IMG/VR virus record: IMGVR_UViG_3300029288_000066
Span: 164,887-228,886 of that record
Direction: 5' to 3' (one strand)
Source: a virus
Lineage: Duplodnaviria > Caudoviricetes
DNA: 64,000 nt
The position numbers were made by a program, and so were the translations under genes. Positions 3,436-39,302 of this stretch are shown one piece after another. A model generated the notes under the pieces. The model was not told where the DNA came from, ran no database searches, and worked only from the letters and a program-made list of their open reading frames with translations. How positions within the stretch are numbered: the stretch's first letter is position 1; the number at the start of each line of letters is the position of its first letter.

Positions 3436-4195
3436 AAAACCTTGAGTTTACAGGCTTTAGTGAGCCAACTTTCGGAGGATTATTGTTTCCCCGCCTTATC
3501 CACATGCCTTGCGACACGTACCGACTCAATCTCGACTGCTATGGGCAATCACTCCTATCGTCACAGACTACTCTACTGCTACTTTAACCACAACAAGGGC
3601 GCCCCCCTGCAATAGCCTTTCACAATAATCCGTTGAACTTTGACATCCAACGTCCCCAATTCATCTTGCGATGTCAGGGTCTGAGAGACCTGTCGTCCAT
3701 AACGCCAGCGGAACTTTTTCTTTGCTTCTATTGTTTTTAGAGAATAGAGCGGTTTTTACCCCGCACCAAAGTATGTGTTTAATTAAGGATGTGCCGCTGG
3801 AACAGCTTCGCCACTTTTGGCGACGAAATACTATACACCTTCTGCGCCCTTTTGCATCAGTACGCTTTCATCTCCGAATCCTTCCTCCATCGCTGGAAGC
3901 GAGAATCCCAAAAACAAATGGAACACGCTCTATAGTCTGCTAAACGTTGAACATTATTCCTCGGTTTTTCCTGTTACCCCTTTCGGAGCTCAATCGCCTT
4001 AACACAATTTAGACGATATTCCACTCAGCAGTTGCCCTTGCAGAACGTACTAACCTATTGTATGCTCGACTTCCTTGTGAAAGCGGCGAGTTATAAACCC
4101 CACCTTTAATCCTGGTCACCCAGTTTATTTTGCCTGCCCCTTTCGGAACAGACCTTGACAACCCGTAGGCCACCAGTGACAGCACACTGCCACAA
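3436..4195 (-). ncRNA. large structured RNA, GOLLD-like
   Basis: About 760 nt, GC-richer than its flanks, no credible ORF, many GAAA/GCAA-capped hairpins on the minus strand. TATCTTTG promoter (~4250) and boxA (~4215) upstream; terminator 3395-3430 downstream. Family assignment is from size, context and recalled 3' motifs. Confidence 0.6.
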
Positions 4196-4312
4196 ATATT
4201 TTCAATATTTTAAAGAACTTTAAATCTTGGTTACTCACCTATAATGAGCAAAGATATATAATCTAAAAACAAAAAGCAACTTTTTTCTTGTTTTTTTTTA
4301 TTTTTTTTTAAA

Positions 4313-4397
4313 AAGACGTAAACAGGCCGCTCAACCACCTACCCTTGCTTTCTTCCGAACCTGGGGGAGTTCAGTAGGAGCTGGCCTATTACGCTTT
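4313..4397 (-). ncRNA. ffs: small SRP RNA (4.5S)
   Basis: Long hairpin containing CAGGTTCGGAAGAAAGCA, matching the Ffh-binding domain IV consensus CAGGUCCGGAAGGAAGCAG. Confidence 0.8.
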
Positions 4398-6968: not shown

Positions 6969-7823
6969 ATGAATAAATGTTTAAATTGCGGACAGGAAAC
7001 AAATAACAATAAGTTTTGTTCTATTAGTTGCCAACATAGATTCCAAAAAGCATCACAAATTGATAAAAGACTTGGTATGTTTTTAGACTTTACAATTAAA
7101 TGCAATAAGTGTGGAAAGGAGTTTGTAGTTAATGAACGTGAAAATTTATTTCCACAAAAAGAAAAATATTATTGTAGTAGAAGTTGTGCAAATAAAAGAA
7201 TTCATAGTGAAGAAACTAAGAAAAAGATAAGCAAAAGAATTAAAGAGCTTATAAAAGAAAATCCAGAAAAATATAGCAATGGTGGTTATAATAGCGGTTC
7301 TGAATTACAAAAAAAAAGAGAAAAAATTGTAAAAATAATTTGTAAAAAATGTTTAAAAGAATTTTGTGTGCCTTATGGTAGAAGAAATAGGCAATTTTGT
7401 TGTAAAACGTGTGCATCTAATTGGATGAAAGGTTCTTCTAAATCTCAATTAACTGGACTGTTATCAGTACAAGCACAAAAGGATATGAGAAGAAGTAAAA
7501 ATGAGATATATTTTTCTGAATTATGTAAAAATCACTTCAATAAGGTTTTAACCAACGAACCAATATTTAATGGTTGGGATGCAGATGTTATTATTGAAGA
7601 CATTAAAATGGCAGTTTTGTGGAATGGTAAGTGGCATTATGAAAAGATAACTAAAAAACACTCTGTCAAACAAGTTCAAAATAGAGATAAAATAAGAATT
7701 AAAGAAATTAAAGAATATGGATATAATTACTACATCATTAAAGATATGGGAAGACAAAATAAAAAATTTGTTGAGGATAAATTTAACACATTTATAAAAA
7801 TGTTGGGAACAAAAAATTCTTAG
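6969..7823 (+). CDS. Zn-finger plus PD-(D/E)xK/Vsr-like endonuclease (homing-type)
   Basis: Repeated CxxC...FCSxSC fingers; C-terminal DADVII...WNGKWHY...RDKIR. Confidence 0.7.
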   Translation: MNKCLNCGQETNNNKFCSISCQHRFQKASQIDKRLGMFLDFTIKCNKCGKEFVVNERENLFPQKEKYYCSRSCANKRIHSEETKKKISKRIKELIKENPEKYSNGGYNSGSELQKKREKIVKIICKKCLKEFCVPYGRRNRQFCCKTCASNWMKGSSKSQLTGLLSVQAQKDMRRSKNEIYFSELCKNHFNKVLTNEPIFNGWDADVIIEDIKMAVLWNGKWHYEKITKKHSVKQVQNRDKIRIKEIKEYGYNYYIIKDMGRQNKKFVEDKFNTFIKMLGTKNS

Positions 7824-7897
7824 TGGCGATGACGAGATTTGAACTCGTAACCTTCTCTTTATGAGAGAGATGTGCATACCAATTACACCGCATCGCT
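7824..7897 (-). tRNA. tRNA-Met/Ile2 (CAT), A1:C72 mismatch
   Basis: Cloverleaf; anticodon arm TCTCT-CTCATAA-AGAGA. Confidence 0.85.
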
Positions 7898-7910
7898 GTT
7901 TAAAAAAATA

Positions 7911-8116
7911 GTGGTGCGTGAAAGCCTCCTACTTTCATAATCTCGCTGACTTACACAGCTAGAAGGTCTCGGAATCGCACAACGAAAGTAGTTGTAGTCG
8001 AACAAATTTCACTTCTTCTGAAATGATATTCATTCTTTCGATTGTGTCAACAATCCAACTGCTCCGTTGATTCACTACTGAACCTTTAATTACAGCGGTC
8101 TTAAGCACCGCACCAC
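7911..8116 (-). ncRNA. unidentified ~205-nt structured RNA
   Basis: Terminal stem GTGGTGCG/CGCACCAC enclosing several hairpins, located between tRNAs. Confidence 0.5.
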
Positions 8117-8199
8117 TTGCCTACAAACAACTCATGCATTAGCTGTTCATGTGCCAGGGAAACACTCGCCCTTTTGCAAATAGAGTCTGTGATTCCTTT

Positions 8200-8273
8200 T
8201 GAGCGAAAGATGGGGTTCGAACCCACGGCCTGAACCTTGGCAAGGTCCCACTCTACCACTGAGCTACTTTCGC
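8200..8273 (-). tRNA. tRNA-Gly (GCC)
   Basis: Cloverleaf; GGACC-TTGCCAA-GGTTC. Confidence 0.9.
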
Positions 8274-8280
8274 ATTAAAA

Positions 8281-8437
8281 TTAGGGAATTCTCGAACTAA
8301 GCTTTTTCTTTTCCGCCCCATTTAGCCACTCTGGTACTCCTCGATTTTAATTTTCTTTGTCGAGGAGGATGGATTCGAACCACCGTAGGCTTACGCCAGC
8401 AGATTCCTTTCGAAGTATCTTAATTTGTTACCACTAA
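8281..8437 (-). ncRNA. Y-RNA-like (YrlA-type) RNA with circularly permuted tRNA-Tyr-like domain
   Basis: Shared AGTGG...ATACTTCG...TTCCCT stem. The tRNA 3' half precedes the 5' half; acceptor stem CGAGGAG/CTCCTCG is closed by an A-rich linker. Confidence 0.75.
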
Positions 8438-8444
8438 TTTTTTG

Positions 8445-8518
8445 TGGAGATGACTGGATTCCAACCAGCGACTTCTTGATTGCAGGTCAAGCGCTCTAAG
8501 CAGCTGAGCTACATCCCC
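8445..8518 (-). tRNA. tRNA-Ala (TGC), C19:G56 and C33 variant
   Basis: G3:U70; CTTGA-CCTGCAA-TCAAG. Confidence 0.8.
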
Positions 8519-8601
8519 CATTGTTTTCCTATTAACTCTTCCTGCACTAAGGTGCGCAGGTTAACAGAACTTCGGAAAAGCTTCTATACTTGTTCAGTTA
8601 G

Positions 8602-8678
8602 TCGGGCATGCAAGATTCGAACTTGCGAGTTCTCCACATCCCAAATGTGGCGGGGTGGCCTGACTCCCCAAATGCCCG
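8602..8678 (-). tRNA. tRNA-Pro (TGG)
   Basis: CCACA-TTTGGGA-TGTGG. Confidence 0.88.
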
Positions 8679-8747
8679 AATTTACAACCTTTGTTTGCAG
8701 AATAGTTTTTGAATTTTAATTTTTTAAACTATTTATAATAAAATACG

Positions 8748-9449
8748 ATGAAACCTTTATTTACAGAAGAAGAGTTCAACAATGCAAAAAGCGAAGATAA
8801 ACTTCCTTGCGAATGCTATTATTGTAAAAAACAATTTTTTCCCTATAAAAAAGCAATTAAACATGAATTAAAAAGTAATAGTGGGTGGATAAAGTTTTGT
8901 TCAATTGCATGTCATAATAGATATAAGTTCGGAGAATCTGTTTTAACAAAATGCTCTAATTGTAATAAACATATATATAAAGACCCTTCACAAATAAAAA
9001 AATCTAAAACTGGAAATATCTTTTGCTCAAAGTCTTGCGCTGCCACATATAATAACAAGCATAAAATTCATGGCACTCGTAGGTCAAAGCTTGAAATTTA
9101 TTTAGAAAAACAATTAACGCTTTTATACCCAAGTTTAGAGATTCTTTATAACAACAAAGAAACAATAAACTCTGAACTTGATATTTATATTCCTTCTTTT
9201 AAACTTGCTTTTGAACTTAATGGAATCTTTCATTACGAACCAATATTTGGTGATGAAAAACTAGGTAAAATCCAAAACAATGATGAGCGCAAATTTCAAG
9301 CTTGTTTAGAAAACCAAATTGAACTCGTTTTAATTGATGTTTCTTCTTTAGGATATTTTAAGCCTAAAAATGCTGATAAATACCTTAATATTATTATCAA
9401 CATTATAAATAAAAAATTAGGGAATTCTTTGCAGAATCTTTTTTTATAG
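8748..9449 (+). CDS. Zn-finger plus PD-(D/E)xK endonuclease (homing-type), antisense to the tRNA operon
   Basis: ELDIYIP...FELNGIFHY; paralogue of 28266..28940. Confidence 0.75.
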   Translation: MKPLFTEEEFNNAKSEDKLPCECYYCKKQFFPYKKAIKHELKSNSGWIKFCSIACHNRYKFGESVLTKCSNCNKHIYKDPSQIKKSKTGNIFCSKSCAATYNNKHKIHGTRRSKLEIYLEKQLTLLYPSLEILYNNKETINSELDIYIPSFKLAFELNGIFHYEPIFGDEKLGKIQNNDERKFQACLENQIELVLIDVSSLGYFKPKNADKYLNIIINIINKKLGNSLQNLFL

Positions 9450-9567
9450 CGTTCTAGCCATTAAACTATCCCCACAATTTTACTTTATTCTCTTTTGTGT
9501 AGGGAGCGAGATTCGAACTCACATTTCTGTCTTGGAAGGACGATGAAATTCTACGATTTGCCACTAA
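9417..9567 (-). ncRNA. Y-RNA-like RNA with permuted tRNA-Gly(TCC)-like domain
   Basis: Same terminal stem; GTC-CTTCCAA-GAC loop, T arm, acceptor GTGGGGA/TCCCTAC, D arm placed last. Confidence 0.72.
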
Positions 9568-9572
9568 TTTTG

Positions 9573-9648
9573 TCGGAGTAACTGGATTCGAACCAGCGGA
9601 AATCTTGCACCCCATGCAAGCCCATATAGCCATCTGTGGAACACCCCG
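9573..9648 (-). tRNA. tRNA-Pro (GGG)
   Basis: CTTGC-ATGGGGT-GCAAG. Confidence 0.85.
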
Positions 9649-9782
9649 ATAAAATGACCAACGTCAAGATTTTTGAGTTGCTAATGCTTTTGCTACATCA
9701 CCGTTAATGCTGCTTTGTCGACTCATCGGCAATAAGGCCGCTATTCACATTAATTCTTCCTCTCATATTAATCAGTCATTTG

Positions 9783-9857
9783 TCTAGGTGGCAAGATTCG
9801 AACTTGCGGACCGATGTTTCCAAAACACCGTAGTATAGCCATCTGCAATACACCTAG
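9783..9857 (-). tRNA. tRNA-Pro (TGG)
   Basis: GGTGT-TTTGGAA-ACATC. Confidence 0.82.
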
Positions 9858-9874
9858 TTTTTTATTTTTCACTG

Positions 9875-9960
9875 TTGCGGGTGAGGGACTCGAACCCCCG
9901 CTTTCCTTTTGGGAAAGTCCAGCTTATGAGACTGGCGAGATGCCGCTTCTCTAACCCGCA
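9875..9960 (-). tRNA. tRNA-Met (CAT) with long variable arm
   Basis: CCAGT-CTCATAA-GCTGG followed by CTTTCC-CAAAA-GGAAAG. Confidence 0.8.
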
Positions 9961-9967
9961 TTTCAGT

Positions 9968-10038
9968 GGGAATAGCAGGATTCGAACCTACAATTCACAG
10001 ATTTACAGTCTGCTAAGCAACCGCTGCTCAATACTCCC
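9968..10038 (-). tRNA. tRNA-Tyr (GTA) with short variable loop
   Basis: GCAGA-CTGTAAA-TCTGT; 5-nt variable region. Confidence 0.8.
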
Positions 10039-10154
10039 AATTTCTCCAGCTCAAGGGTCAGTCTATCCCTTTTCTTTTTAACGCTATATTAAGGAGACTT
10101 CTATGTGTTCAACAACGCTCTCATATGCAGCTAGAGGAAGATTTTCAAAATTTG

Positions 10155-10236
10155 TCGGAAGGGTAGGAGTTGAACCTACATAGCCAGAGGCGACTGTTTT
10201 ACAGACAGCTGATTTAGCCGATTTACCATCCTGCCG
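10155..10236 (-). tRNA. tRNA-Tyr (GTA), C1:G72
   Basis: GCTGT-CTGTAAA-ACAGT; variable arm present. Confidence 0.8.
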
Positions 10237-10243
10237 AATTAAA

Positions 10244-10387
10244 TCAGGGAAAGGGCGGAAGAGTTTTTTTTAAATTCCCCCTTGTTAAATTTGTTTTTCT
10301 TAATTGGCGGGGGAAGTTGGATTTGAACCAACATTGTTTGTTTTTCACACAAATGTTTACCGAAGTATCTCTTTCTATTGCCACTGA
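10244..10387 (-). ncRNA. Y-RNA-like RNA with Phe(GAA)-like anticodon arm, T arm and acceptor stem
   Basis: Same terminal stem; TTTGT-GTGAAAA-ACAAA, GTTGG-TTCAAAT-CCAAC, TTCCCCC-GCCA pairing with downstream GGGGGAA; no D arm. Confidence 0.7.
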
Positions 10388-10391
10388 TTTG

Positions 10392-10466
10392 TGGAGCTTA
10401 ACGTATTCGAAACGTTCTGCTTTTCTCATTGCAAATGAGATGACCACCCTAGCAGTCCCAAGCCCC
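10392..10466 (-). tRNA. tRNA-Ala (TGC)
   Basis: G3:U70; TCTCA-TTTGCAA-TGAGA. Confidence 0.8.
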
Positions 10467-10476
10467 ATAGTTGGGA

Positions 10477-10988
10477 TTATAATAATCCCAGGTTTTTTAA
10501 TCTTTCGATTTCAATTTCATTTCTTTTTATTTTTTTTCTTAACAGAGTGTTATCGAAATCCAGTAGAAATGATTCTGGAATTTTGATATTTTTTTCTTTG
10601 AATTGGTTCAGCACTTCATCTTTTGTAAAGCTACATTCTACAATTCCGTCTGTCCATTGGTCTAGCCACAGACCCCAACTTTTTTTCCCTATTACAACAC
10701 CCTTTAAAATATTAGGATGACAGCTTTTTAGGTTATGAATTTTGATTTCGCCATTTTCGAATTTTCTATAACAAAATTTTCCTTCATCTGAATTTAAATC
10801 GAATTCCACTTTCACATCTGAGCCGCAGAATGTAAGAATTCCGCTTCTGTATGATGTTAAAAAGAAGGTGAAGATTTCATTAAATTTTTCAGAATATCTT
10901 TGAAGTTTTCTATGAATTCTACTTCCAGATTTCTCTTTTGTTTTTTCAATTCTTTTTAATCTTTCTTGGATTAAGTCGCTTTTCGCAT
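10477..10988 (-). CDS. hypothetical protein, probably frameshifted in an A-run just after the ATG
   Basis: The frame of 10477..10815 is open upstream to ~10985, but the ATG is one base out of frame. Confidence 0.5.
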
Positions 10989-11024
10989 GGTTGTTCCCTC
11001 CATATTAATTGTTTAAAAATAAAA

Positions 11025-11091
11025 TCAGGGAAAAATTTACTGAGAGAGTTTTTTGATTGGAAGTCGAAGTATCTCTACTGATTGCCACTGA
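11025..11091 (-). ncRNA. minimal Y-RNA-like stem without tRNA domain
   Basis: TCAGTGGCAA...AGATACTTCG...AAAACTCTC...TTCCCTGA. Confidence 0.65.
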
Positions 11092-11098
11092 TTTTTTG

Positions 11099-11169
11099 AG
11101 CGAAATGTGGGAATTAAACCCCTTCTACTAGTTGGAGGCCAGCCGCTTTATCGTTAAGCTACATCTCGC
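11099..11169 (-). tRNA. atypical tRNA-Gly (TCC), 8-bp acceptor and short T stem
   Basis: GCTGG-CCTCCAA-CTAGT; A19:U56. Confidence 0.65.
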
Positions 11170-11296
11170 ATTGTAGTGGTTTTGTATTAACCTGTGACCA
11201 CCAAACACCGCCAACATACGATTTGGAATGAGTGTGCAGCGGCTCTGAACCCGCTCTACGCCTTACATCATCTTCGTTCCCTTGTACTTCGGGCTT

Positions 11297-11372
11297 TGGA
11301 GCAGAAGACGGGGCTCGAACCCGCCACCTGGAGATTGGAAATCTCCCGCTCTACCAAATGAGCTACTTCTGC
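11297..11372 (-). tRNA. tRNA-Gly (TCC)
   Basis: Canonical cloverleaf with encoded CCA. Confidence 0.92.
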
Positions 11373-11465
11373 ATTGGTGCCAGACATTTTGAACTTTTTC
11401 ATTCACGGGCACTTTCGGGAAAACCCTATACATAACGCCCTGACAGCTATCTCGCCTCCGCTTTT

Positions 11466-12326
11466 TTAATTTAATTTCTTTTCGTAATATTTAATCCATT
11501 TTCTTACTGCATTATCAGAAACTCCATATTTTCTTCCGACTGCACTATAATTAGATTTTTTTAATTCTTCAACAAGTTCTATATAAGAAGGTCTCTGTGT
11601 TTTTCTTTGCCTAATTTCATCACACGATTTACATCTTTTCATACCTTTACCTATTTCATTTCCACATGCACAATAATTTTTATTTTTTTCTTTAATTTCT
11701 TTTATTTTATCAAAATATTGCTTTCCTATATTCTTTCCTCCATTAGTATTAAATGTAGCCGCACAATTTGGACAAACTATTCTTAAATTTTCCAATCTAT
11801 TATCATTATGATGCCCATTTTTATGGTCAAGAATCAAACTAATTTTTTCCCCATTCCAAACTTCTCCTTGTCCACATTTCTCGCATATTTTTTGTTTAAG
11901 TTCTTCTTTATATAATCTTTCTTTTAAATTTGTCGTATGATTATATGTTGAATTTTCAACTAATATGTCGGACAAATCAAATTTTCCAGAAACAAATCTA
12001 TTACCTGAAATGCCAAAATTAAAATGTGAAATGTCAATGTTGTATTTCTCTATATATTTTTTAATAGTATTTCTGTTACCACAATGAGTTGTAATTCCCA
12101 ATCTCCTAGCTACATCAGTATAGCTTTTAGACTCACCCACAACTTTTTTAAATTTTATTTCATTGTATTTTTCATTCCTACATTCAAGATTAAGAGCAAA
12201 ATGTTGTGCTTTACCTCTAATAGATGTTTTTGTCCTTTTTAATTCATTTGCACAAAATTCACATCCGTAGATTGGATAATTCTTTTTCAAGAATTCCACG
12301 TCTTTTTCTGTCCATTCTTTTTTCAT
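11466..12326 (-). CDS. HNH homing endonuclease
   Basis: CEKC...LDHKNGHHNDNRLENLRIVCPNC; paralogue of 26407..27183. Confidence 0.85.
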   Translation of the reverse strand: MKKEWTEKDVEFLKKNYPIYGCEFCANELKRTKTSIRGKAQHFALNLECRNEKYNEIKFKKVVGESKSYTDVARRLGITTHCGNRNTIKKYIEKYNIDISHFNFGISGNRFVSGKFDLSDILVENSTYNHTTNLKERLYKEELKQKICEKCGQGEVWNGEKISLILDHKNGHHNDNRLENLRIVCPNCAATFNTNGGKNIGKQYFDKIKEIKEKNKNYCACGNEIGKGMKRCKSCDEIRQRKTQRPSYIELVEELKKSNYSAVGRKYGVSDNAVRKWIKYYEKKLN

Positions 12327-12407
12327 GGTTTTTGTTTTTTCTTATAAATAGTTCAAAAAAACAAAAACTATAAATTTAACTATATAATTATCAACACACA
12401 AAAAAAG

Positions 12408-12478
12408 CGGAATGCGTGGGAATCGAACCCCTCCCTCAGCGTGACAAGCTGATATACAACCATTATACTGCGCACTCC
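12408..12478 (-). tRNA. tRNA-Asp (GTC), 8-bp acceptor and short T stem
   Basis: TCAGC-TTGTCAC-GCTGA. Confidence 0.78.
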
Positions 12479-12593
12479 ATTTTGTATATCTACACTATTA
12501 AAATTACATTAATAGCGTAGATATACTTTTTGAAATCTTTTTTTATTCCCAACATGTCAAAGAACTTTCCAATAGAATAAATCTATAGAAGAG

Positions 12594-12682
12594 CGGGGAT
12601 TATGGGATTCGAACCCATGTAAAACCTTTTAAGGGTCTCAGGCGTGACAGGCCAGCATCAACTCCAGACTTGACCAAACCCC
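12594..12682 (-). tRNA. tRNA-Asp (GTC) with long variable arm
   Basis: CTGGC-CTGTCAC-GCCTG followed by AGACC-CTTAAAA-GGTTT. Confidence 0.75.
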
Positions 12683-12708
12683 CGTATTTTTATTTTAAAG
12701 AACGATAT

Positions 12709-12750
12709 AAAAAAAGAAACCCGAATCTTTTTGGGATTCGGGTCTGTTTA
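12709..12750 (-). terminator. attenuator terminator of tRNA operon A
   Basis: GACCCGAATC-loop-GATTCGGGTT plus U-tract, between the leader ORF and the first tRNA. Confidence 0.85.
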
Positions 12751-12775
12751 TTCCTTTTATAAGTTTACAACTTCA

Positions 12776-12886
12776 TTAAGGTTTAGTATTAAACATACCC
12801 GTCCCACATCCATAATCGGCATCAATCGCTGATGGATAGCCGCCCATCGGAGTTACTTCTAAACGATATGTAAAATTCTGTTTCAC
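12776..12886 (-). CDS. leader peptide, 36 aa: MKQNFTYRLEVTPMGGYPSAIDADYGCGTGMFNTKP
   Basis: GTG start. Rich in P/M/G/Y/A/D. Its 3' part is complementary to the terminator 5' arm. Confidence 0.8.
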   Translation of the reverse strand: MKQNFTYRLEVTPMGGYPSAIDADYGCGTGMFNTKP

Positions 12887-13056
12887 CTTTAATTAATTTT
12901 TATACTGTTGTTACTATTAAATATCTCAAAAAAATGTTTTTCATTTCTCTTCTACGGCAAAGGTACAAAAAAAGTTACATCAAATGCAAGTTTTTTTTCG
13001 TTTATTTTTAAAATAATTTTTAATTGATTGATTTACAATACACTTATTTTTAAAAT

Positions 13057-13512
13057 TTATTTTGCTTTATCATCTATTTTTTGAAATTTTCTTAAATCTT
13101 TTTGAAAATTTCTTGAAAAAGAGTTGTAGGTTTTAATCATTTCATCAATTTTTTCCTGAGTAATTGGGTCACCGTTTGAAGAATTTCTACCCTGTTTAAG
13201 TTTCAAACTATCTTTTACGATTCTTCTTCTTAGATAATGATATCTGACCAAATTCTTTGTATAGCTTGATATAAAAGGCCACTTCTTTATTATCTGATAT
13301 GATTTTTCTTCGTGATTTGTAAATGAATAATTATATCCATCTGTCTTCAGTGTTGCTACAAAAGGTTTTCCAATATCATGCAATAGTGCGGCCACGCATA
13401 AGTCTGGCATAGCAAAGAGAAAATACCAAAACGCTCTTAATGTATGGACAAGTACAGAGTGTTTGTGATGGGTATTTTGTCTAATGAATAATGTGATAAA
13501 AAATTTTTTCAT
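13057..13512 (-). CDS. HD-domain protein
   Basis: H...ALLHDIGKP...HEE...YH...D. Confidence 0.8.
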   Translation of the reverse strand: MKKFFITLFIRQNTHHKHSVLVHTLRAFWYFLFAMPDLCVAALLHDIGKPFVATLKTDGYNYSFTNHEEKSYQIIKKWPFISSYTKNLVRYHYLRRRIVKDSLKLKQGRNSSNGDPITQEKIDEMIKTYNSFSRNFQKDLRKFQKIDDKAK

Positions 13513-25789: not shown

Positions 25790-25864
25790 TGGTACCCTCA
25801 CCCAGAATCGAACTGGGATTTAAAGTTTAGGAAACTTCCGTTCTGTCCGTTGAACTATGAAGGC
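25790..25864 (-). tRNA. tRNA-Arg (CCT)
   Basis: GAAGT-TTCCTAA-ACTTT; encoded CCA. Confidence 0.9.
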
Positions 25865-25869
25865 ATTTG

Positions 25870-26043
25870 TTACATAAATTTTAACCTCAGCTTCGCCTTA
25901 TCGTACTTTGCCAAAGCTTTTTCATATTCTTCCTTAGAAACATTCTTTTTAAAGTTTTCACTTTGAACACGCTTTCTAAGAAATTCTACATATTCCTTAT
26001 GTCTTTCGACATCATCTTTTTTATTTTCTTGTTTCTTTTTCAT
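25870..26043 (-). CDS. small basic hypothetical protein
   Basis: MKKKQENK... ORF. Confidence 0.55.
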   Translation of the reverse strand: MKKKQENKKDDVERHKEYVEFLRKRVQSENFKKNVSKEEYEKALAKYDKAKLRLKFM

Positions 26044-26239
26044 AACTTCCATCTGGTAATTCTGGCAACAGCTGCCAGTGTGTAACATTCATAATTGACC
26101 ATCCTTTGCAATGCCCCGTTGGCTCATTCTTGTGACCATAGCCCCAAAAATAAGCTGTCACAATGCCAATTGGCGTTCCGCAAGCCAACACCTTTGTCCC
26201 AGGAGTTGGTAATTCATCCTTAATTGAAATCCATGTCAT
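26021..26239 (-). CDS. DUF551-like phage protein
   Basis: WISIKDELP...VTHWQLLPELP. Confidence 0.75.
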   Translation of the reverse strand: MTWISIKDELPTPGTKVLACGTPIGIVTAYFWGYGHKNEPTGHCKGWSIMNVTHWQLLPELPDGSYEKETRK

Positions 26240-26406
26240 ATTAATTTCTTTTAACCTCTCAGCAGAAAAATCAGGATACCTAACCGATATTGCGTTCGGG
26301 AACCTTTCAGTCCTCGGTGGTAAGAATGGGAAACTTTGGACATCTCCACTTACATACAACGGTATCCTAACCTCACTTTTTCATTTTCTGCCTTACTATT
26401 TTATTT

Positions 26407-27183
26407 TTAAATTATTTTATATGATTTTGCCCATTTTCTAATTGCATTGTCAGACACTCCATATTTTCTTCCAACAGCACAAAAAGACATTTTATTTAAC
26501 ATTTCTTGTAATTCCTCTTTTGTTGGCCTATCTTCTACCTTTCTAATATTTTCTCTAAGAAAACATTTTTTCTTATAAAAGTCAGGAGCATTCCTTTTTA
26601 CAAAGCCTCTTACATATTCCATACTCAATCCAGTTAAAATTGTAGTGTTATATACCCAGCTTTTCTTTGAAAAATCTATATTAGAATTCATTATTATATC
26701 AATATCTAATTTTACTCTTTCTGTCTTTATATTCTTTCCAGCATATGTTTTGGTTTGAGAATGACAGTTAGGGCACAACAATTCTAAATTTTCTAATCTA
26801 TTATCATTATGTGTTCCATTTTTATGTTCTAAGTGCAAAGAGATATAAAATCCATTCCATTCACTAATATTACATTTATTACATTTATATTCTAATAATC
26901 CTTCTTTTAATAATCTTTTTTTTAAACTCTCGTTGTTTTTATAGAGAGAATTTTCTATAAGAATTTCTTCCAAAGAATACTTTTTATTATTCTTTTCATA
27001 ATTAAAATTTCTTTTAAAGCTTGGGATGACTACCCCAAGAGTTTTGCAGTGTGACCTAAATGTTCTATAGGCTCCAGACCCATTAGAGTTAATACCTAAT
27101 TCAATAAAAATTTTTCTTAAAGAATCATATTTGTCAAAGAACGTTAAAAGCTCTTCTTTGGTTAAATTGACTATTTTTTTCAT
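26407..27183 (-). CDS. HNH homing endonuclease
   Basis: LEHKNGTHNDNRLENLELLCPNCH; C-terminal HTH GRKYGVSDNAIRKW. Confidence 0.85.
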   Translation of the reverse strand: MKKIVNLTKEELLTFFDKYDSLRKIFIELGINSNGSGAYRTFRSHCKTLGVVIPSFKRNFNYEKNNKKYSLEEILIENSLYKNNESLKKRLLKEGLLEYKCNKCNISEWNGFYISLHLEHKNGTHNDNRLENLELLCPNCHSQTKTYAGKNIKTERVKLDIDIIMNSNIDFSKKSWVYNTTILTGLSMEYVRGFVKRNAPDFYKKKCFLRENIRKVEDRPTKEELQEMLNKMSFCAVGRKYGVSDNAIRKWAKSYKII

Positions 27184-27255
27184 TTTTATTTATAAATAGT
27201 CAAAAAAAGTCAAATTAACCTGTAAAAAAATCTTTTAATTTGATGCTTATTTTAG

Positions 27256-27328
27256 CAGCCCAGGCAGGACTCAAACCTGCAACCAACGCTTTTGGAGAGC
27301 GCCATTCTATCAATTGAACTACTGACCT
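27256..27328 (-). tRNA. tRNA-Trp (CCA), A19:U56
   Basis: GCGCT-CTCCAAA-AGCGT. Confidence 0.82.
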
Positions 27329-27333
27329 ATTTG

Positions 27334-27404
27334 CAAGCATGGAAAGGTTCGAACTCTCGACTTTGGGTTTGGAAGCCAACGTGTTGCCACTACACCACAC
27401 ACCT
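27334..27404 (-). tRNA. tRNA-Trp (CCA)
   Basis: TTGGC-TTCCAAA-CCCAA; G73. Confidence 0.78.
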
Positions 27405-27412
27405 GTATTTTG

Positions 27413-27491
27413 CATAGGCAGAAGGATTCGAACCCTCACAGTTTTCACCACGCTTTTGGAGAGCGCTTATCTCACCAATGAATGTGCCTAT
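27413..27491 (-). tRNA. tRNA-Trp (CCA) with extended variable arm
   Basis: GCGCT-CTCCAAA-AGCGT followed by GGT-GAAA-ACT. Confidence 0.75.
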
Positions 27492-27674
27492 ATCTTTTTT
27501 CTTTCTCTTCTTAAATTATCCAACTCTACCTGCAAAACATTTCTTTTTTTATACAATTCAATTACCTTATCAATTGTTTCAGTATAATCAAAATTACGTT
27601 TGGCAAGTCTTTCAATTACCTCCTTTCTATTTTCTACTATGTACTTTATTTGTAACATCTTTTTTATTATTTTG

Positions 27675-27746
27675 TACCCAGGGAGGGACTCGAACCCCCG
27701 ACCAAAGCCTTAGAAGAGCCACGTTCTTCCACTGAACTACCTGGGC
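27675..27746 (-). tRNA. tRNA-Arg (TCT)
   Basis: Loop CTTCTAA; weak anticodon stem. Confidence 0.8.
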
Positions 27747-27837
27747 ATAACCAGAAAGATAGCACTGTTCCCCAAAAACCCACCACCAAGTGCCCTGGCG
27801 TAGACCAACGGTTGGGGTCTAAATTATCTTTCCTTTG

Positions 27838-27911
27838 TCTCTCTGGCGGGAGTTGGACCCACAACCTTCAGATTAGAAGTCTGACGCTCTATCCAGTTGA
27901 GCTACAGAGAG
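27838..27911 (-). tRNA. tRNA-Arg (TCT)
   Basis: TCAGA-CTTCTAA-TCTGA. Confidence 0.88.
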
Positions 27912-27916
27912 AATTT

Positions 27917-28006
27917 TGGCGGTAAGTAAGGGATTCGAACCCCTGGTGCCCTTTCGAGCACACATGCTTTCCAAGCATGCGCCTTAAACCACTCGGCCAA
28001 CTTACC
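27917..28006 (-). tRNA. tRNA-Ser (GGA)
   Basis: Canonical class II tRNA with encoded CCA. Confidence 0.92.
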
Positions 28007-28011
28007 ATTTG

Positions 28012-28098
28012 CGGAAGAAAGAGAGAACGATTCCCACGCCCCTAAAGGCGCCAACGGTATTCGAAGCCGTGGTGTCGCCACCCGACACTTTTTCTTCC
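28012..28098 (-). tRNA. tRNA-Ser (CGA), 8/4 allo-tRNA-like fold
   Basis: 8-bp acceptor, 6-bp D stem GTGTCG/CGACAC, long variable arm, 4-bp T stem. Confidence 0.7.
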
Positions 28099-28104
28099 AG
28101 TTTG

Positions 28105-28189
28105 CGGAGAGTGCGAGTACCGACCTCGCTTGGGCATTACCCCATCCTAAGTTTAGCAAACTTGACTCTTACCTTTCGAGCAACTCTCC
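28105..28189 (-). tRNA. tRNA-Ser (GCT), divergent T loop
   Basis: CAAGT-TTGCTAA-ACTTA. Confidence 0.75.
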
Positions 28190-28265
28190 ATTACGTAAAG
28201 CATGAATTGTGAAATATAATTTTTATTTTTTATTTTTTCCGCATATTTATTAATATAATACATTA

Positions 28266-28940
28266 TTGTTTATGATACCACTATATACTAAAAACGAATT
28301 TGACTTAGCAAAATCATCTGATAAACTTCCATTGCAATGTGAACTTTGTGGAGAAATTTTTTATACACAAAAAAGAATAATAAAAGACAAAAGAGGCGTC
28401 AAAAAGTTTTGTTCTTTTTCTTGTCTTGGAAAATCTACATTACAAAAAGTGTTAATTAATTGTAAACAATGTAACAAAGAATTCTTAATAAAAAAATCTC
28501 AATTAAAAAAAAGCGAAAATCATTTTTGTAGCATTTCTTGCAATGCTAATTATAACAATTCTCATAAAACATGTGGATTTAATCGTTCTAAACTTGAAAT
28601 TTATCTCGAAAAACAACTTGCGGCTTTATATCCAAATTTAGATATTCTTTATAACAACAAAGAAACAATTAATTCTGAATTGGACATTTACATTCCATCT
28701 TTTAAACTTGCGTTTGAACTCAATGGGATATTTCATTATGAACCAATATTTGGTAATGAAAAACTGAATCAAACAAAAAACAATGACAAAAATAAATTTA
28801 AATTATGCCAAGAACACAATATCTCTCTATGTATTATAGACACATCATCTCAAAAATATTTTAAAGAAAATACCTCTAAAAAATATCTTGATATAATTAC
28901 AAACATTATTTCAAAGAACTATTCTGCTGCTTTTTCCTAA
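28266..28940 (+). CDS. Zn-finger plus PD-(D/E)xK endonuclease, antisense to the tRNA operon
   Basis: Nuclease domain nearly identical to that of 8748..9449. Confidence 0.75.
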   Translation: MFMIPLYTKNEFDLAKSSDKLPLQCELCGEIFYTQKRIIKDKRGVKKFCSFSCLGKSTLQKVLINCKQCNKEFLIKKSQLKKSENHFCSISCNANYNNSHKTCGFNRSKLEIYLEKQLAALYPNLDILYNNKETINSELDIYIPSFKLAFELNGIFHYEPIFGNEKLNQTKNNDKNKFKLCQEHNISLCIIDTSSQKYFKENTSKKYLDIITNIISKNYSAAFS

Positions 28941-29014
28941 CATTAAAGGCTCGCTGAGCCTATAATGATGTTTTTAAACAGCAATAACTACAATACGTCA
29001 AAGAACATTTTTAG

Positions 29015-29104
29015 CGGAGGGAGTGAGGCTCGAACTCACACACCCTTTTAATGATTGACGGTTTTCAAAACCGCTGCCGATAGTCCTACTCGGCTTACCC
29101 CTCC
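29015..29104 (-). tRNA. tRNA-Ser (TGA)
   Basis: GCGGT-TTTGAAA-ACCGT; long variable region. Confidence 0.85.
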
Positions 29105-29185: not shown

Positions 29186-29272
29186 TTAGAAAATATTCGG
29201 CCAGGAACAAGTAATTCTACTTGAGCTTCTTCTCCTGGATGACCAACTAATATTTCCTACTTTATTTTTCAT
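29186..29272 (-). CDS. leader peptide, 28 aa: MKNKVGNISWSSRRRSSSRITCSWPNIF
   Basis: Eleven consecutive S/W/R codons. Its 3' part is complementary to the terminator. Confidence 0.88.
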   Translation of the reverse strand: MKNKVGNISWSSRRRSSSRITCSWPNIF

Positions 29273-31619: not shown

Positions 31620-31718
31620 AGTTTTTTGTTTTTTATACAATATAAAAAAAAATCCCCCCAAAATCAAGAGATTTCAGAGGAATTTTCAGAAACGAAAAGA
31701 AACGAAACGAAATTTTTG

Positions 31719-31792
31719 CCTCCCAGACAGGACTCGAACCTGCAACCAGCGGTACTAGAAGCCGCAGCTCTACCAAATTGAGCTACAAGGAG
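31719..31792 (-). tRNA. tRNA with CUA anticodon (amber suppressor)
   Basis: Normal D and T arms; GCGGC-TTCTAGT-ACCGC places CTA at positions 34-36. Confidence 0.75.
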
Positions 31793-33869: not shown

Positions 33870-36209
33870 TTAATACTTTAATCCAGTAGTAGAATCATAC
33901 AATCTTTCATTTTCCAATTTGTAAACTCCAAAGATATCATCATTCGCTTGGTGAAGGGATTCATAAGTTTTTTTTCTTACACTTATACAATTTTGTAAAA
34001 CAACGCCCCTTATTTTTTTAAACTCAATGCCCTTAACATCTCTCTCTTTATAATCCACAACACCTTGTAACTCATTAAATAACTTTACAAAATCACTCCA
34101 ATTCCCTTCGTTTTTCCCAACATAAATCGTATGAGATTCTGGGTCCCCTTGAATAAATTTGTATTTCCCTAAATTTTTAAAATTGCCATAAAGAATATCG
34201 TCTATTAAATTTTGTTCATCATTTACTTTCCCTTGCTCTATATGCTTGGACAATCCATAAAAATAACGCTCGCATCTTTCATGAAATTCTATTTCTGTCA
34301 TTGGTGATATTTTGCTTAAAATATCGTTTCTAAAGCTATTAGACATCATGTTGGCGTAAACCATATTACAATCATAATAATCGGATTCTTCGTCTTTGTA
34401 AACGAACAGAAACGTGTTTATCATACCAAATTCCCCATGTCTATTCCCCCTCCCATTTGATTGAACCACGCTTGATGGTGGTGCCGCATCTCTATATATA
34501 GATGGGAAGCTTATGTCTACCCCTGCCTCTATTACCTGGGTGCTTACTACTAATATTTTTTTATTATCCTGCAGGTCTTGCTTAATTTTATTTAATATTT
34601 GAATTCTATCATGGGGACTAATGTGGGAGTTTAGCAAATACACCTTCTCAAAAAGAGAACCGCTTTGCTTGAACTTATAATACATTTTTTGGGAGGTCTT
34701 GATGGTGTTTAAAATCAGTAGCGTTGCAACATTGGATTTTCTTACCGTTTCATATAAAGATTCTGAATCTAATTCTCCAATAAAATTTATAGTATATCTA
34801 TTAAATACTTCATCGTCGAAAACATCATTATTTAGGAGCTCAATTGGTGGATTTATGTTTTTTATTAGCTTTTTGAAGTTTGCGTTTGCTACGGTATTTA
34901 AATCAACATTCATATTTGGCATTGTTGCAGTGCTTATAATCGCATAACAATCATTCTTCTCGCAAAAATAAGCAAGAAGCTGTACAAATATTGCATATTG
35001 AGAAGGAGAAGTCGCCTGGTACTCATCAATTAAAAAGATTCTTTTTTTATAATTTTTAAGCCTCATTAGCTTACTCGTAGAATTATTCGCTAATGTTTCA
35101 AAAAGCTGATTAAACGTTGTCACTATAAATGGATGGTCAAAACAACTTTCTGAAAAAGCATATTCAGAAATTCCATCCAAATCTGTTCCTTCTTTTAACA
35201 TAGATTGAAGCTTCTCACTTACATCGGAAGAGCTGGTGTAATTTAAAGTCTGTATTTTTAAATCCTTATTTATGATTTCTACTGTTTGGTCAATTATGGA
35301 TAAAAATGGCAGCGAGTAAATAATATCATGCTCGTAGCTAAACTCCTTTAATATTTCAATTGCTAACTGAAGCATCATAAATGTTTTTCCACTTCCAGTG
35401 GGTGCCGTTAATGTAAAAACTCTTTGTTGGTTTATACAATTAAGCAATTTTTCTACTGCTTGCTTTCTTATTTTGTTCCTTGCTTCATTTAATTTTGTAT
35501 CGGCCTTAAAGTGCAAAAATATCCACTCAAGATTATTCTCAAGAACATAAGCATATCTCTTTCTTGACTTCTCTCTATAACAACTCTTATTTCCAGAAGC
35601 GTCTTTTCTGTCTCCATAAACTAATTCTCCATAAGTTTGAATAGTGTCAAAATAATGTTTTATAGACTCATCTTCCCATGATTTCAAATCAGACACTCTC
35701 CCAAATGATTTATAAAAGTTATTATTTTCCAAATCATCCACGAAATTCAATTTACAATTTAATAAGTCAAAGTTGTCTTCAAAAAATGTATTCACATGCT
35801 CCGTCATATTGATTGTTTTCAAATATGAAACCATTTTATCCCACTCCTCTTGATTGAATAGTTCGTCTATATTTCTCAAATATCCATGGTGCCCAACTAT
35901 AATATTTATCAAAATAATAAGTATACTTTCGTAATTATTATCATTAATGAATTTAAATCTGCCTTCTATTTCATCCTTATTGTTTACAAATGCATTAATG
36001 AGATAATATGATGAGATATATGAATGATTTGAATATCCATCAAAGGGCAATCCTACAATCTTTCTCTGAAAGTTGTCGTTCATTTTCCCAACATCGTGGA
36101 ATGATGCCGCAAGCAATTTTAAATCATCTAAATCACAATTGCTCAACACCCCCCTTGTGTGGTCTATCAACAATTTTGTTGGATGGGATTTTGGATTATA
36201 TCCTGACAT
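33870..36209 (-). CDS. cas3: Cas3 HD nuclease-helicase
   Basis: HDVGK, APTGSGKT, DEYQ, STAT, STQVIEAGVDI, QSNGRGNR. Confidence 0.93.
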   Translation of the reverse strand: MSGYNPKSHPTKLLIDHTRGVLSNCDLDDLKLLAASFHDVGKMNDNFQRKIVGLPFDGYSNHSYISSYYLINAFVNNKDEIEGRFKFINDNNYESILIILINIIVGHHGYLRNIDELFNQEEWDKMVSYLKTINMTEHVNTFFEDNFDLLNCKLNFVDDLENNNFYKSFGRVSDLKSWEDESIKHYFDTIQTYGELVYGDRKDASGNKSCYREKSRKRYAYVLENNLEWIFLHFKADTKLNEARNKIRKQAVEKLLNCINQQRVFTLTAPTGSGKTFMMLQLAIEILKEFSYEHDIIYSLPFLSIIDQTVEIINKDLKIQTLNYTSSSDVSEKLQSMLKEGTDLDGISEYAFSESCFDHPFIVTTFNQLFETLANNSTSKLMRLKNYKKRIFLIDEYQATSPSQYAIFVQLLAYFCEKNDCYAIISTATMPNMNVDLNTVANANFKKLIKNINPPIELLNNDVFDDEVFNRYTINFIGELDSESLYETVRKSNVATLLILNTIKTSQKMYYKFKQSGSLFEKVYLLNSHISPHDRIQILNKIKQDLQDNKKILVVSTQVIEAGVDISFPSIYRDAAPPSSVVQSNGRGNRHGEFGMINTFLFVYKDEESDYYDCNMVYANMMSNSFRNDILSKISPMTEIEFHERCERYFYGLSKHIEQGKVNDEQNLIDDILYGNFKNLGKYKFIQGDPESHTIYVGKNEGNWSDFVKLFNELQGVVDYKERDVKGIEFKKIRGVVLQNCISVRKKTYESLHQANDDIFGVYKLENERLYDSTTGLKY

Positions 36210-36252
36210 AAATCTTTTCTTTATATAAATTATACGGCTTAAATTACAATTT

Positions 36253-37468
36253 GTTACAGATTACTTAAAGTTTTTAGGTGTGAACAATAATAGCGCAACA
36301 GTGTCACAATAAAGCAGGATTGTAATTACAAATAATTTACAAATGATGAACAATAACATTTTCTTGTACAGTGAATGCACCATTTTAATTGCAAGTAGCT
36401 TGTAAATAACAAACGGCAACAAACATTCCTTCTGATAAATATAATCAATTTTAATTACAAACAATTTATAGATAATAAACAGCTTTTACTGAAAACGAAA
36501 CTGGTGTAGCTCCATTATAATTACAAATAATTTATAGATGATATGCCAATGTTTTCATTGGATTAACGGCTTCGCTGGATTGTAATTACAGACAATTTAT
36601 AGAAGATAAGTAACAAGACACTATTTTTTATTATTGTGCAATACATTATAATTACGAGTAATTTATAAATGATGAGCATCAGCAACACTATATAGTCAAG
36701 CAGGCACTTGGTTGTAATTACAAATAGTTTGTAAGCGATGAGCAATTGGTAGCACAGCTACAGGATATTTCTTTGAGTTGTAATTACAAGTAGTTTGTAG
36801 GTGATGAATAACAGCGCAATTCCATACACGAAATATTCAGCAGTTGTAATTACAAGTAGTTTGTAGGTGATGAACAACACAAACCGCAAAATATGTAACA
36901 ATCCAATCGTTGTAATTACAAACAATTTGTAGGTGATGAACAACTTATTGCAAATTTACTATTTATAACAACACATTGTAATTACAAACAGCTTGTAGGT
37001 GATGAACAACCCTGAGAGCGAAGCAATACGAGACGGCGGGTTGTAATTACAAACAGCTTGTAGGTGATGAACAACTGTCTAGTTGTATCTTTAAATATAT
37101 TCTCGTTGTAATTACAAACAGCTTGTAGGTGATGAACAACCAATTCCTTTTAATTTAACCCACTCCAATAGTTGTAATTACAAACAGCTTGTAGGTGATG
37201 AACAACATAAGAATGTAAATATTGTGATGGATTCAGGTTGTAATTACAAACAGCTTGTAGGTGATGAACAACAATGTTGTGTTCTCCAAATCAATTTACA
37301 AAGTTGTAATTACAAACAGCTTGTAGGTGATGAACAACAAACCAGCATGATTCAGGTGTCAATGCATGTTGTAATTACAAACAGCTTGTAGGTGATGAAC
37401 AACTTTTGAATTGGTTGGATAACCAGCCTTTCGTTGTAATTACAAACAGCTTGTAGGTGATGAACAAC
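36253..37468 (-). CRISPR. CRISPR array: 19 repeats (36 nt, GTTGTTCATCACCTACAAGCTGTTTGTAATTACAAC) and 18 spacers, mostly 29-30 nt
   Basis: Seven identical repeats at 37040-37468 with progressive decay toward cas3; AT-rich leader at 37469-37548. Confidence 0.95.
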
Positions 37469-37548
37469 AGAACATATCAGACTGGCTGCTATCATCCATT
37501 TTTAATATAAAAATGAAATAAAAAAATGATATAAAACTCTATTTATTG

Positions 37549-38265
37549 TTAAATAAATTCTATATTTTCATTTTCTACTTTGTGATAGTTTCCATGAGCT
37601 TTAAGTGTTTCACAATTATCATTAAAATAAATGGTTTTAAAACTTTTTAAATCATGAGCCAAATAAGATTCGCTTCTAGTGGGTATATCATCAGTTCTTA
37701 TGTGCTCAAATGATTGGACATCATCAAGAACAATATTTGTGCAAATAGCTGAGGTCTCAAAATTCCCATTACATGGCTTGGCATCATATGCCCCTATATA
37801 TTTTATTTCTGCCATAAAATTTGCCATTCCCATATATGGAGGAAAGATAAATTCTTCATTTTTAATATTCTCAACAAAATTATTCAACATCGTCTTTATG
37901 TCAAAATCATCTTCTTCATATAATACATAGATACTGTAACTAACATCCACAAGCCTTTCAAACTTTGACGGCGTGTACATCGGTCTGTCAGGTTTTACAA
38001 GATTTCCATGATTGTAACCATATTCTGACCAATATTTTATTTGGAACGGTTTCTTTAATTTAACAGAATATCGAATTTTTTCTGTAAGAATTTTATAGAG
38101 ATTGTTCGATTTCATAAACTCTTTTTCCACGCCAATCACCGCACAGATAATGCCTATTAAAGCTGATTTCGGCATAATGCAAAATGTGCTTGGATTGTTG
38201 TTGCTTTGTGGACGCTGGAACGCACCCAATGCACTATTAATATTAAATACAATTGCTTTTTCCAT
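37549..38265 (-). CDS. cas5: Cas5
   Basis: GAFQRPQSN...PKSALIGIICAVIG...PYMGMANF. Confidence 0.88.
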   Translation of the reverse strand: MEKAIVFNINSALGAFQRPQSNNNPSTFCIMPKSALIGIICAVIGVEKEFMKSNNLYKILTEKIRYSVKLKKPFQIKYWSEYGYNHGNLVKPDRPMYTPSKFERLVDVSYSIYVLYEEDDFDIKTMLNNFVENIKNEEFIFPPYMGMANFMAEIKYIGAYDAKPCNGNFETSAICTNIVLDDVQSFEHIRTDDIPTRSESYLAHDLKSFKTIYFNDNCETLKAHGNYHKVENENIEFI

Positions 38266-38266
38266 A

Positions 38267-39262: not shown

Positions 39263-39302
39263 GATTAATTTTATTTTATAACGTTAAATTTATTGCGTGA
39301 TT

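Follow-up and report, generated by a model that had tools for sequence, protein, structure and literature searches.

Putative leader-peptide attenuators precede codon-matched tRNA clusters in a large phage genome

The tRNA operon and its leader region

The DNA described here, referred to throughout as the window, is the final 64 kb (64,000 nucleotides) of the IMG/VR virus record IMGVR_UViG_3300029288_000066, which is linear and 228,886 bases long (32.8% GC; CheckV completeness 82%). Nearly the whole stretch is contained in a landfill metagenome run, which may be its source and from which no piece across the leader was obtained; no RNA run was among the public runs listed for it. Its minus strand carries a tRNA operon, hereafter unit A, in which a predicted promoter, a short open reading frame (ORF) and an intrinsic terminator stand in front of tRNA genes for Asp, Gly, Ala, Tyr and Pro and of tRNA genes with a CAT anticodon (Table 1). 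A second cluster in the window, for Ser, Arg and Trp, is called unit B. This work concerns the leader region of unit A and its apparent role as a leader-peptide attenuator of the tRNA genes themselves.

An HD-domain gene (13057-13512) adjoins the promoter upstream and is found in the same place, or one gene off, in several relatives. One of these, G001, is complete at 372 kb and its HD-domain gene is 77% identical to that of the window, so the virus record probably covers part of a jumbo phage genome. The primary sigma factor of Bacteroidota recognizes a promoter consensus that includes a TAnnTTTG box (PMC9723704); the promoters described here carry this box, from which we infer a Bacteroidota host. 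A blastn search of the INPHARED phages returned tRNA-sized matches only and no cultured relative, and the viral_contigs set, searched with DNA patterns of the promoter, gave no match.

The 14 tRNA genes listed for this operon in a preliminary description of the DNA (two Asp, three Gly, two Ala, two Tyr, two CAT and three Pro) were all recovered: 13 by ARAGORN at default settings, and the fourteenth, the tRNA-Gly(TCC) at 11098-11169, at a relaxed score (91.6) and by Rfam (38.3 bits, above gathering). Neither CAT tRNA carries the three G-C pairs of the initiator anticodon stem. Downstream of the leader, the operon contains tRNAs and Y-RNA-like cassettes, together with a few ORFs that have a helix-turn-helix (HTH) or no Pfam match, and no biosynthetic or synthetase genes.

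Table 1. Positions, in window coordinates, of the features of unit A and of its sister unit B
Feature	Position	Strand	Remarks
Promoter, Bacteroidota sigmaA type, TTG ... TAnnTTTG	12958-12989	minus	predicted from consensus; common to all five tRNA units
Leader ORF, 36 codons, GTG start to TAA stop	12886-12776	minus	frame conserved
Candidate protector strand (region 1), leader codons 6-8	12865-12871	minus	complementary to antiterminator strand; weak
Sensor codons 13-25 (Pro, Met, Gly, Gly, Tyr, Pro, Ser, Ala, Ile, Asp, Ala, Asp, Tyr)	12812-12850	minus	
Antiterminator 5' strand (region 2), leader codons 29-33	12790-12801	minus	
Antiterminator 3' strand	12739-12750	minus	overlaps terminator 5' arm (region 3)
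Intrinsic terminator, hairpin and U tract	12709-12745 (hairpin 12717-12745)	minus	-14.5 kcal/mol
boxA-like element, GTTCTTT	12693-12704	minus	directly after terminator; role by resemblance only; second copy 12555-12566
tRNA-Asp(GTC)	12593-12683	minus	ARAGORN and Rfam; first tRNA of operon
tRNA-Asp(GTC)	12407-12478	minus	ARAGORN and Rfam
tRNA-Gly(TCC)	11297-11372	minus	ARAGORN and Rfam
tRNA-Gly(TCC), atypical	11098-11169	minus	Rfam and relaxed ARAGORN
tRNA-Ala(TGC), atypical D arm	10391-10466	minus	ARAGORN
tRNA-Tyr(GTA)	10154-10236	minus	ARAGORN and Rfam
tRNA-Tyr(GTA)	9966-10038	minus	ARAGORN and Rfam
CAT-anticodon tRNA (Met assumed; Ile2 alternative)	9874-9960	minus	ARAGORN
tRNA-Pro(TGG)	9782-9857	minus	ARAGORN
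tRNA-Pro(GGG)	9572-9648	minus	ARAGORN
tRNA-Pro(TGG)	8601-8678	minus	ARAGORN
tRNA-Ala(TGC)	8444-8518	minus	ARAGORN and Rfam
tRNA-Gly(GCC)	8201-8273	minus	ARAGORN and Rfam
CAT-anticodon tRNA (Met assumed; Ile2 alternative)	7823-7897	minus	ARAGORN; last of operon
Sister unit B, 28-codon Ser/Arg/Trp leader	29186-29272	minus	tRNAs at 25790-29104

Match between leader codons and downstream tRNAs

The first indication that the leader ORF is linked to the operon behind it is its amino acid content. The preliminary description had reported a 36-aa ORF with a 19-residue core in which 15 residues are Pro, Met, Gly, Tyr, Ala or Asp, with all six present, and both its coordinates and its counts were reproduced. 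When every 19-residue segment of the phage proteome is scored in the same way, 1 of 47,120 reaches 15/19 and none contains all six amino acids, while a six-frame scan of the genome yields just one other segment that reaches 15/19 with all six. Only 2 of 38,760 possible sets of six amino acids fit the leader equally well, and shuffling the bases of the core 100,000 times never produced a core with 15/19. Since leader codons 26-31 lie within or immediately before the antiterminator strand, the effective sensor is taken to be codons 13-25, where 11 of the 13 codons are cognate to tRNAs of the operon and all six amino acids are represented. A 14-codon ORF with an ATG start (12944-12900) was also considered as the leader and was rejected, as neither its start nor its frame is conserved and its codons do not match the tRNAs.

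Conservation of the leader

Six other distinct versions of the leader were gathered by way of the upstream HD-domain gene and a DNA pattern, making seven with the window. Two of the seven pattern matches in metagenomes (L020 and L023) were dropped as chance matches with neither the frame nor the tRNAs, and four further sequences (L004, L006, L019 and L026) were left uncounted as repeats of L001 or L005. In each of the six other versions the leader is followed by a terminator. The first tRNA called is tRNA-Asp in five of the six, with L021 having its Asp further downstream, and loci of sufficient length repeat the downstream set of Asp, Gly, Ala, Tyr, CAT and Pro, the exceptions being single extra calls at relaxed score that are located on Y-RNA-like cassettes.

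Across the alignment of the seven versions, the leader ORF appears to be under coding-type selection. All of its insertions and deletions are multiples of three, ATG replaces GTG at the start column in five of the seven versions, and the variable sites of the core fall at codon positions 1, 2 and 3 in the ratio 2/2/8, with 11 synonymous single changes against 3 non-synonymous ones. The amino acids of codons 1-12 vary freely, in keeping with a spacer. Third positions are variable in the sensor and nearly frozen in codons 24-31; the codons after the cognate run form the pairing strand, which explains their constancy. The amino acid conservation is partly built in, as a search by DNA pattern selects for a conserved motif; the window, L001 and L005, which were obtained through the HD-domain gene or are the window itself, are free of this bias. 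A separate groundwater study yielded a 151-base contig with a single difference from the window, a synonymous base change at codon 34.

Sister units in the same genome

Running ARAGORN on the whole record revealed five tRNA clusters, sorted by amino acid, and each of the five is preceded by the common promoter, an ORF of 26-36 codons and a terminator. Besides units A and B, these comprise three matched units elsewhere in the genome, for Asn/His/Thr/Lys/Ile, Leu/Cys and Gln/Phe/Arg/Val. When each leader was scored against each operon in a five-by-five test, the diagonal gave P values of 3e-3 to 3e-6 and no off-diagonal comparison fell below 0.1; likewise, the true assignment of leaders to operons is the best of all 120 permutations (summed -log10 P of 17.7 vs 12.9). 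The match extends to the level of codon boxes in the two leaders that sample Arg: the sensor run of the Ser/Arg/Trp leader uses AGA/AGG codons, before tRNAs with TCT and CCT anticodons, and that of the Gln/Phe/Arg/Val leader uses CGC codons, before a tRNA with an ACG anticodon. No tRNA-Glu was found in the 228,886-base fragment.

An alternative is chance: within an AT-rich leader, a stretch rich in GC would read as Gly, Ala, Pro and Asp by accident and be conserved for its RNA structure only. Gly, Ala and Pro do have GC-rich codons in a genome of low GC content, and the unit A leader starts with a GTG and without a Shine-Dalgarno sequence. We nevertheless regard this explanation as extremely unlikely. 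The base shuffles that never reached 15/19 kept the composition of the core, the frame-keeping indels, third-position bias and ATG starts of five relatives speak for a translated ORF, and the AT-rich sets of the sister units (Asn/Lys/Ile, Leu/Cys and Gln/Phe) match their leaders equally well. As for the missing Shine-Dalgarno sequence, Bacteroidota do not rely on such sequences (PMC9723704).

The preliminary description had called the unit A attenuator independent of that of unit B. This holds for the leader ORF and its sensor, and indeed 249 of 300 shuffled sequences score as well as the actual comparison between the two leaders, as the claim of no similarity between them would have it. It does not hold for the promoter, which is near-identical among units (31-33 of 33 positions in units A, C, D and E; 31-32 of 33 between A and three sister units), and units A and C also have a terminator tail and boxA in common. 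Unit A is thus independent in its sensor and built on a shared chassis. The statement that the two operons divide the code without overlap is correct for A and B; across the genome it fails, with Arg split by codon box and CAT tRNAs present in two units.

Within the Ser/Arg/Trp unit, a 50-codon ORF (29421-29269, minus strand) lies between the promoter and the leader, and translational coupling of the two is suggested, since the stop codon of this ORF overlaps the ATG of the leader. The same unit in G001 has a far shorter distance from promoter to leader.

Units in relatives

The relative G001 has the same five units plus a sixth for Glu, in a region with no counterpart in the record of the window, so that the further arrays with leaders of their own that had been predicted were found both in this genome (three) and in the complete relative (the Glu unit). 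The enrichment of the Glu leader over its whole length is weak (4/22, P 0.08), with all four Glu codons inside a stretch of five. In this sixth unit (L012:1450-1950, equal to G001:338449-338949), a CAT tRNA lies between the promoter and the Glu leader, and is followed by the leader, the terminator and a tRNA-Glu gene with a TTC anticodon. Being placed before the leader, this CAT tRNA would escape attenuation, which would fit if it were an initiator, as a stall in elongation cannot report on an initiator tRNA.

A phage at greater distance, G003 (HD-domain gene identity 67%), groups its tRNAs differently, into blocks for Lys/Trp/Ser/His/Phe and for Glu/Asp/Asn/Tyr/Cys/Met/Ile, with Gln and Leu each alone. 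Asp, Tyr and Met, which in the window stand with Gly, Ala and Pro, have here moved to another block, and their codons have moved with them. The leader of the first block is cognate at 19 of 30 codons (P 1e-5), the second block is preceded by two tandem leaders (29/37, P 2e-7, and 22/29, P 2e-5), the Gln block has a leader with a run of five Gln and the Leu block one with a Leu-rich run; overall, the leader matches in G003 have P values from 1e-4 to 2e-7. The check proposed earlier, whether leader codons change with tRNA content among relatives, comes out in the affirmative for this regrouping. No matching leader was found for the Ser and Arg tRNAs that close the second G003 block. Between the two tandem leader-terminator units of G003 (L014:1200-1960) there are two CAT tRNAs.

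Antiterminator, terminator and predicted switching

The claimed pairing between 12790-12801 and 12739-12750 was reproduced at 11 of 12 positions, a figure equaled by 2 of 20,000 codon-shuffled ORFs. In the seven-version alignment, 92% of cells in this helix are paired, vs 11-48% when one strand is slid by one to three columns. Three versions carry a U-A to C-G double change that is made through a synonymous change of a Phe codon, and one further version lengthens the helix by a G-C pair. The candidate protector helix (1:2, 7 bp) is 93% paired with no compensatory change, and loses to the 2:3 helix in five of the seven versions. No second promoter of the Bacteroidota sigmaA class was found inside the operon; a sigma-70 scan gave 32 promoter-like sites where 26.1 +/- 4.8 are expected by chance, and, being near chance level, was not used.

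To place the ribosome on this structure, the RNA was cut before the terminator 3' arm and everything up to 12 nt past the start of the A site was masked before folding. With the A site anywhere up to the last Tyr (codon 25 in the window), the probability of the antiterminator is 0.98-1.00 in all seven versions, and from the codon after that Tyr (26 in the window) onward it is 0.00, again in all seven. The permissive zone of the model just includes the entire cognate run, codons 13-25. Sister units B-E behave alike in that the cognate run ends at or close to the switch point, least clearly in B.

Several observations weigh against reading this region as a codon-specific attenuator, or limit what can be drawn from it. 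The step in the model stems from a hard footprint cut-off and from the RNA cut, i.e., it is imposed by the mask, and therefore shows a compatible geometry only and not kinetics. With no ribosome present, the fold favors the antiterminator in five of seven versions (0.99 in the window), so the classical protector is a candidate only, and once a ribosome reaches the stop codon it may shield just part of region 2. The compensatory change may have arisen just once, the three sequences that show it being related, 15 of 500 shuffles reach the score, and the CGGG/CCCG core and the terminator are invariant across the versions. The tRNA-Pro(GGG) has no cognate codon in codons 13-25. Finally, two features could interrupt the operon transcript: the opposite-strand gene at 8748-9449 and, near 9370, an AU-rich hairpin accompanied by a T run.

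The behavior of the ribosome-free fold raises the possibility of a general gauge of translation, in which any slowing or failure of leader translation (through a block of initiation, antibiotics or a ribosome-targeting defense) opens the operon and codon identity matters little. A total block of leader translation may indeed also open the operon, given that fold, and in the model a stall at any codon before 26 has the same result; a tRNA array induced by general translational stress is also known, the trn operon of Anabaena (PMC10272220). Such a gauge leaves unexplained why each unit has its own set of codons, down to the codon box for Arg, and why these sets move with the tRNAs in G003. As the sole explanation we consider it unlikely, and it can hold alongside attenuation.

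Less probable still, in our view, is read-through driven by a protein (Nus factors acting at boxA, or a phage antiterminator, perhaps timed to infection), with the ORF encoding a functional small peptide and the pairing being incidental. A boxA-like element does follow the terminator in all units, as had been noted for unit A, and recurs after several tRNAs, and a highly conserved core peptide would also be expected of a functional peptide. However, because the boxA lies past the terminator, it cannot help polymerase through that terminator by the usual Nus mechanism. Nor would this explanation account for five unrelated peptides each matching their own tRNA set, for third positions that are near-frozen in codons 24-31, pairing strand included, and variable in the sensor, or for the compensatory pair being kept.

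Proposed mechanism

Directly observed at this locus are the anatomy, with an ORF between promoter and terminator, the match of its codons to the tRNAs, its conservation with the marks of coding selection, one compensatory pair within a conserved helix that excludes the terminator, and, in the folding model, a geometry with suitable ribosome spacing. These are features by which an attenuator is recognized, to which the protector adds a candidate only. On this basis we think it highly likely that unit A is governed by ribosome-mediated transcription attenuation of the trp type, with the tRNAs themselves as output, and that each tRNA set is very probably made only while ribosomes decode its codons slowly.

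Host RNA polymerase would start at the sigmaA-type promoter, and a ribosome would translate the leader, as its coding-type conservation suggests. With charged Pro, Met, Gly, Tyr, Ala and Asp tRNAs plentiful, the ribosome would pass codon 25 quickly and cover codons 29-33, the terminator would fold, and transcription would end ahead of the first tRNA. Scarcity of any one of the six would make the ribosome wait within codons 13-25, leaving regions 2 and 3 to pair; the antiterminator would then block the terminator and the 14 tRNA genes would be transcribed, presumably as a single 5-kb transcript. Their products would remove the signal of scarcity and so provide negative feedback. Five such units, or six in the complete relative, would tile the code, and switching of this kind is expected to occur in vivo.

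A ribosome cannot distinguish an uncharged tRNA from a missing one. We infer that the natural trigger is the loss of tRNAs, to host defense nucleases or to tRNA decay during infection, more than amino acid starvation, because extra tRNA cures the former and not the latter and because the match reaches codon boxes. The preliminary description had spoken of modular tRNA surveillance, a reading that the matched units, the permutation test and the regrouping in G003 support at the sequence level. Going a step further, and with somewhat better than even confidence, we propose a phage tRNA homeostat: multivalent attenuators that tile the whole code at codon-box resolution, sense which host tRNAs are destroyed or in short supply, transcribe only the block that replaces them, and shut themselves off. 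If true, this would be an inducible and target-specific counter to anti-phage defenses that cleave tRNAs.

Comparison with known systems

The leaders trpL, thrL and ilvL are leader-peptide attenuators of amino acid biosynthesis operons, with the thr leader sampling two amino acids and the ilvGMEDA leader three. The E. coli pheL-pheA attenuator uses the same leader-peptide mechanism, with ribosome pausing as the switch (PMC3082878). As in the pheL/trpL class, unit A has regulatory codons in a short ORF, a 2:3 antiterminator and a 3:4 terminator of which the first excludes the second, and a predicted ribosome-pause switch. Whereas the biosynthesis attenuators control enzymes, the genes regulated here are tRNAs, which makes the sensed molecule the product itself; moreover, one leader samples six amino acids, the system is phage-borne, and a set of units tiles the code. 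Membership in the class of biosynthesis or synthetase-operon attenuators was rejected on the basis of output, the downstream genes being tRNAs. Over the full Rfam Thr_leader model (RF00506) the region gives a weak match (25.5 bits, E 0.13), and membership was rejected, the gathering threshold being 55.

In E. coli pheM-pheST, an attenuator controls an aminoacyl-tRNA synthetase operon. There, too, the sensing of charged tRNA adjusts part of the translation machinery; its output is a synthetase protein under a single-amino-acid sensor, in contrast to the tRNA genes here. Synthetase-operon attenuators are surveyed in work cited by PMC4833913. T-boxes, in which tRNA charging likewise sets the choice between terminator and antiterminator, work without a ribosome, the tRNA being bound directly by a specifier loop. 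Rfam returned no T-box match here, either at gathering or at E values up to 1.

The nearest regulated tRNA array that we found in print is the plasmid-borne Anabaena trn operon of 26 genes, repressed by TrcR (PMC10272220), an RHH repressor with an operator at the promoter. Like the phage units as we read them, it is a large array of accessory tRNAs kept silent as long as translation is not under stress; it differs in that a repressor controls initiation, with one switch for all genes and no codon-specific sensing reported in the abstract. In T5-like phages, tRNA-Tyr counters the PtuAB of retron-Eco7 and tRNA-Lys counters PrrC (PMC11555353), which makes the replacement of host tRNAs destroyed by defenses a plausible purpose here as well; in that case a strong promoter overexpresses the tRNA, with no leader or terminator control mentioned. 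Leader-peptide control of tRNA genes was not found described in the literature searched, most subscription journals lying outside that search. The arrangement that we describe is real and conserved.

Why large phages carry near-complete sets of tRNAs is a long-standing question. A codon-specific switch before each block would make the phage tRNAs an on-demand reserve, extending attenuation from enzymes to tRNA genes and closing a direct feedback loop. The 13-codon sensor for six amino acids is broader than those of the textbook leaders named above. Each leader would be a ready-made reporter of the tRNAs that fail during infection, and the grouping of the tRNAs may mirror which are lost together. 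In Bacteroidota, the 300-base cassettes could be put to use as biosensors of tRNA supply, provided that they behave as predicted.

Other features of the operon and genome

Three protein genes lie amid the tRNAs of unit A, probably mobile endonuclease genes, and the inserts in this operon vary among relatives. The ORF at 11466-12326 (minus strand) has a C-terminal HTH and, by eye, an HNH-like motif; that at 8748-9449 (plus strand) resembles, also by eye, the ORF 28266-28940 inside the Ser/Arg/Trp operon; the third is at 10477-11002 (minus strand).

A repeated cassette of the form GTGGC ... TACTTCG ... TTCCCTGAT-like encloses either a circularly permuted tRNA body or an anticodon-like loop only. 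Its 5' ends inside the operon are at 11089, 10385, 9565 and 8435 (minus strand), with further copies at 50613, 50426 and 50351 in the window and three others elsewhere in the genome record. The copies at 50613, 50426 and 50351 stand just upstream of a TROVE/Ro60 gene (48608-50203), which fits a reading of the cassettes as Y RNAs; an Rfam search over 7800-13100 gave no match to them. Weak ARAGORN calls at 9497 (Gly) and 10309 (Phe) were rejected as ordinary tRNAs, being permuted tRNA-like inserts in such cassettes.

Outside the attenuated units, the window contains a tRNA with a CTA anticodon, of the amber suppressor type (31718-31792), and G001 has two such tRNAs and G003 one. Long ORFs in the window end in TAG 15 times (TAA 138, TGA 18), so this codon apparently keeps its role as a stop. 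Further along the minus strand, a few kb beyond the last tRNA of the operon, Rfam places a GOLLD RNA (3439-3843, 185.9 bits) and a small SRP RNA (4310-4397, 47.2 bits). Genes for Cas3 (33870-36209) and Cas7 (38267-39262) within 33870-40976 probably belong to a phage-borne type I CRISPR-Cas module. Outside the window, ARAGORN called a permuted tmRNA at 84078-84424 of the full record (G000).

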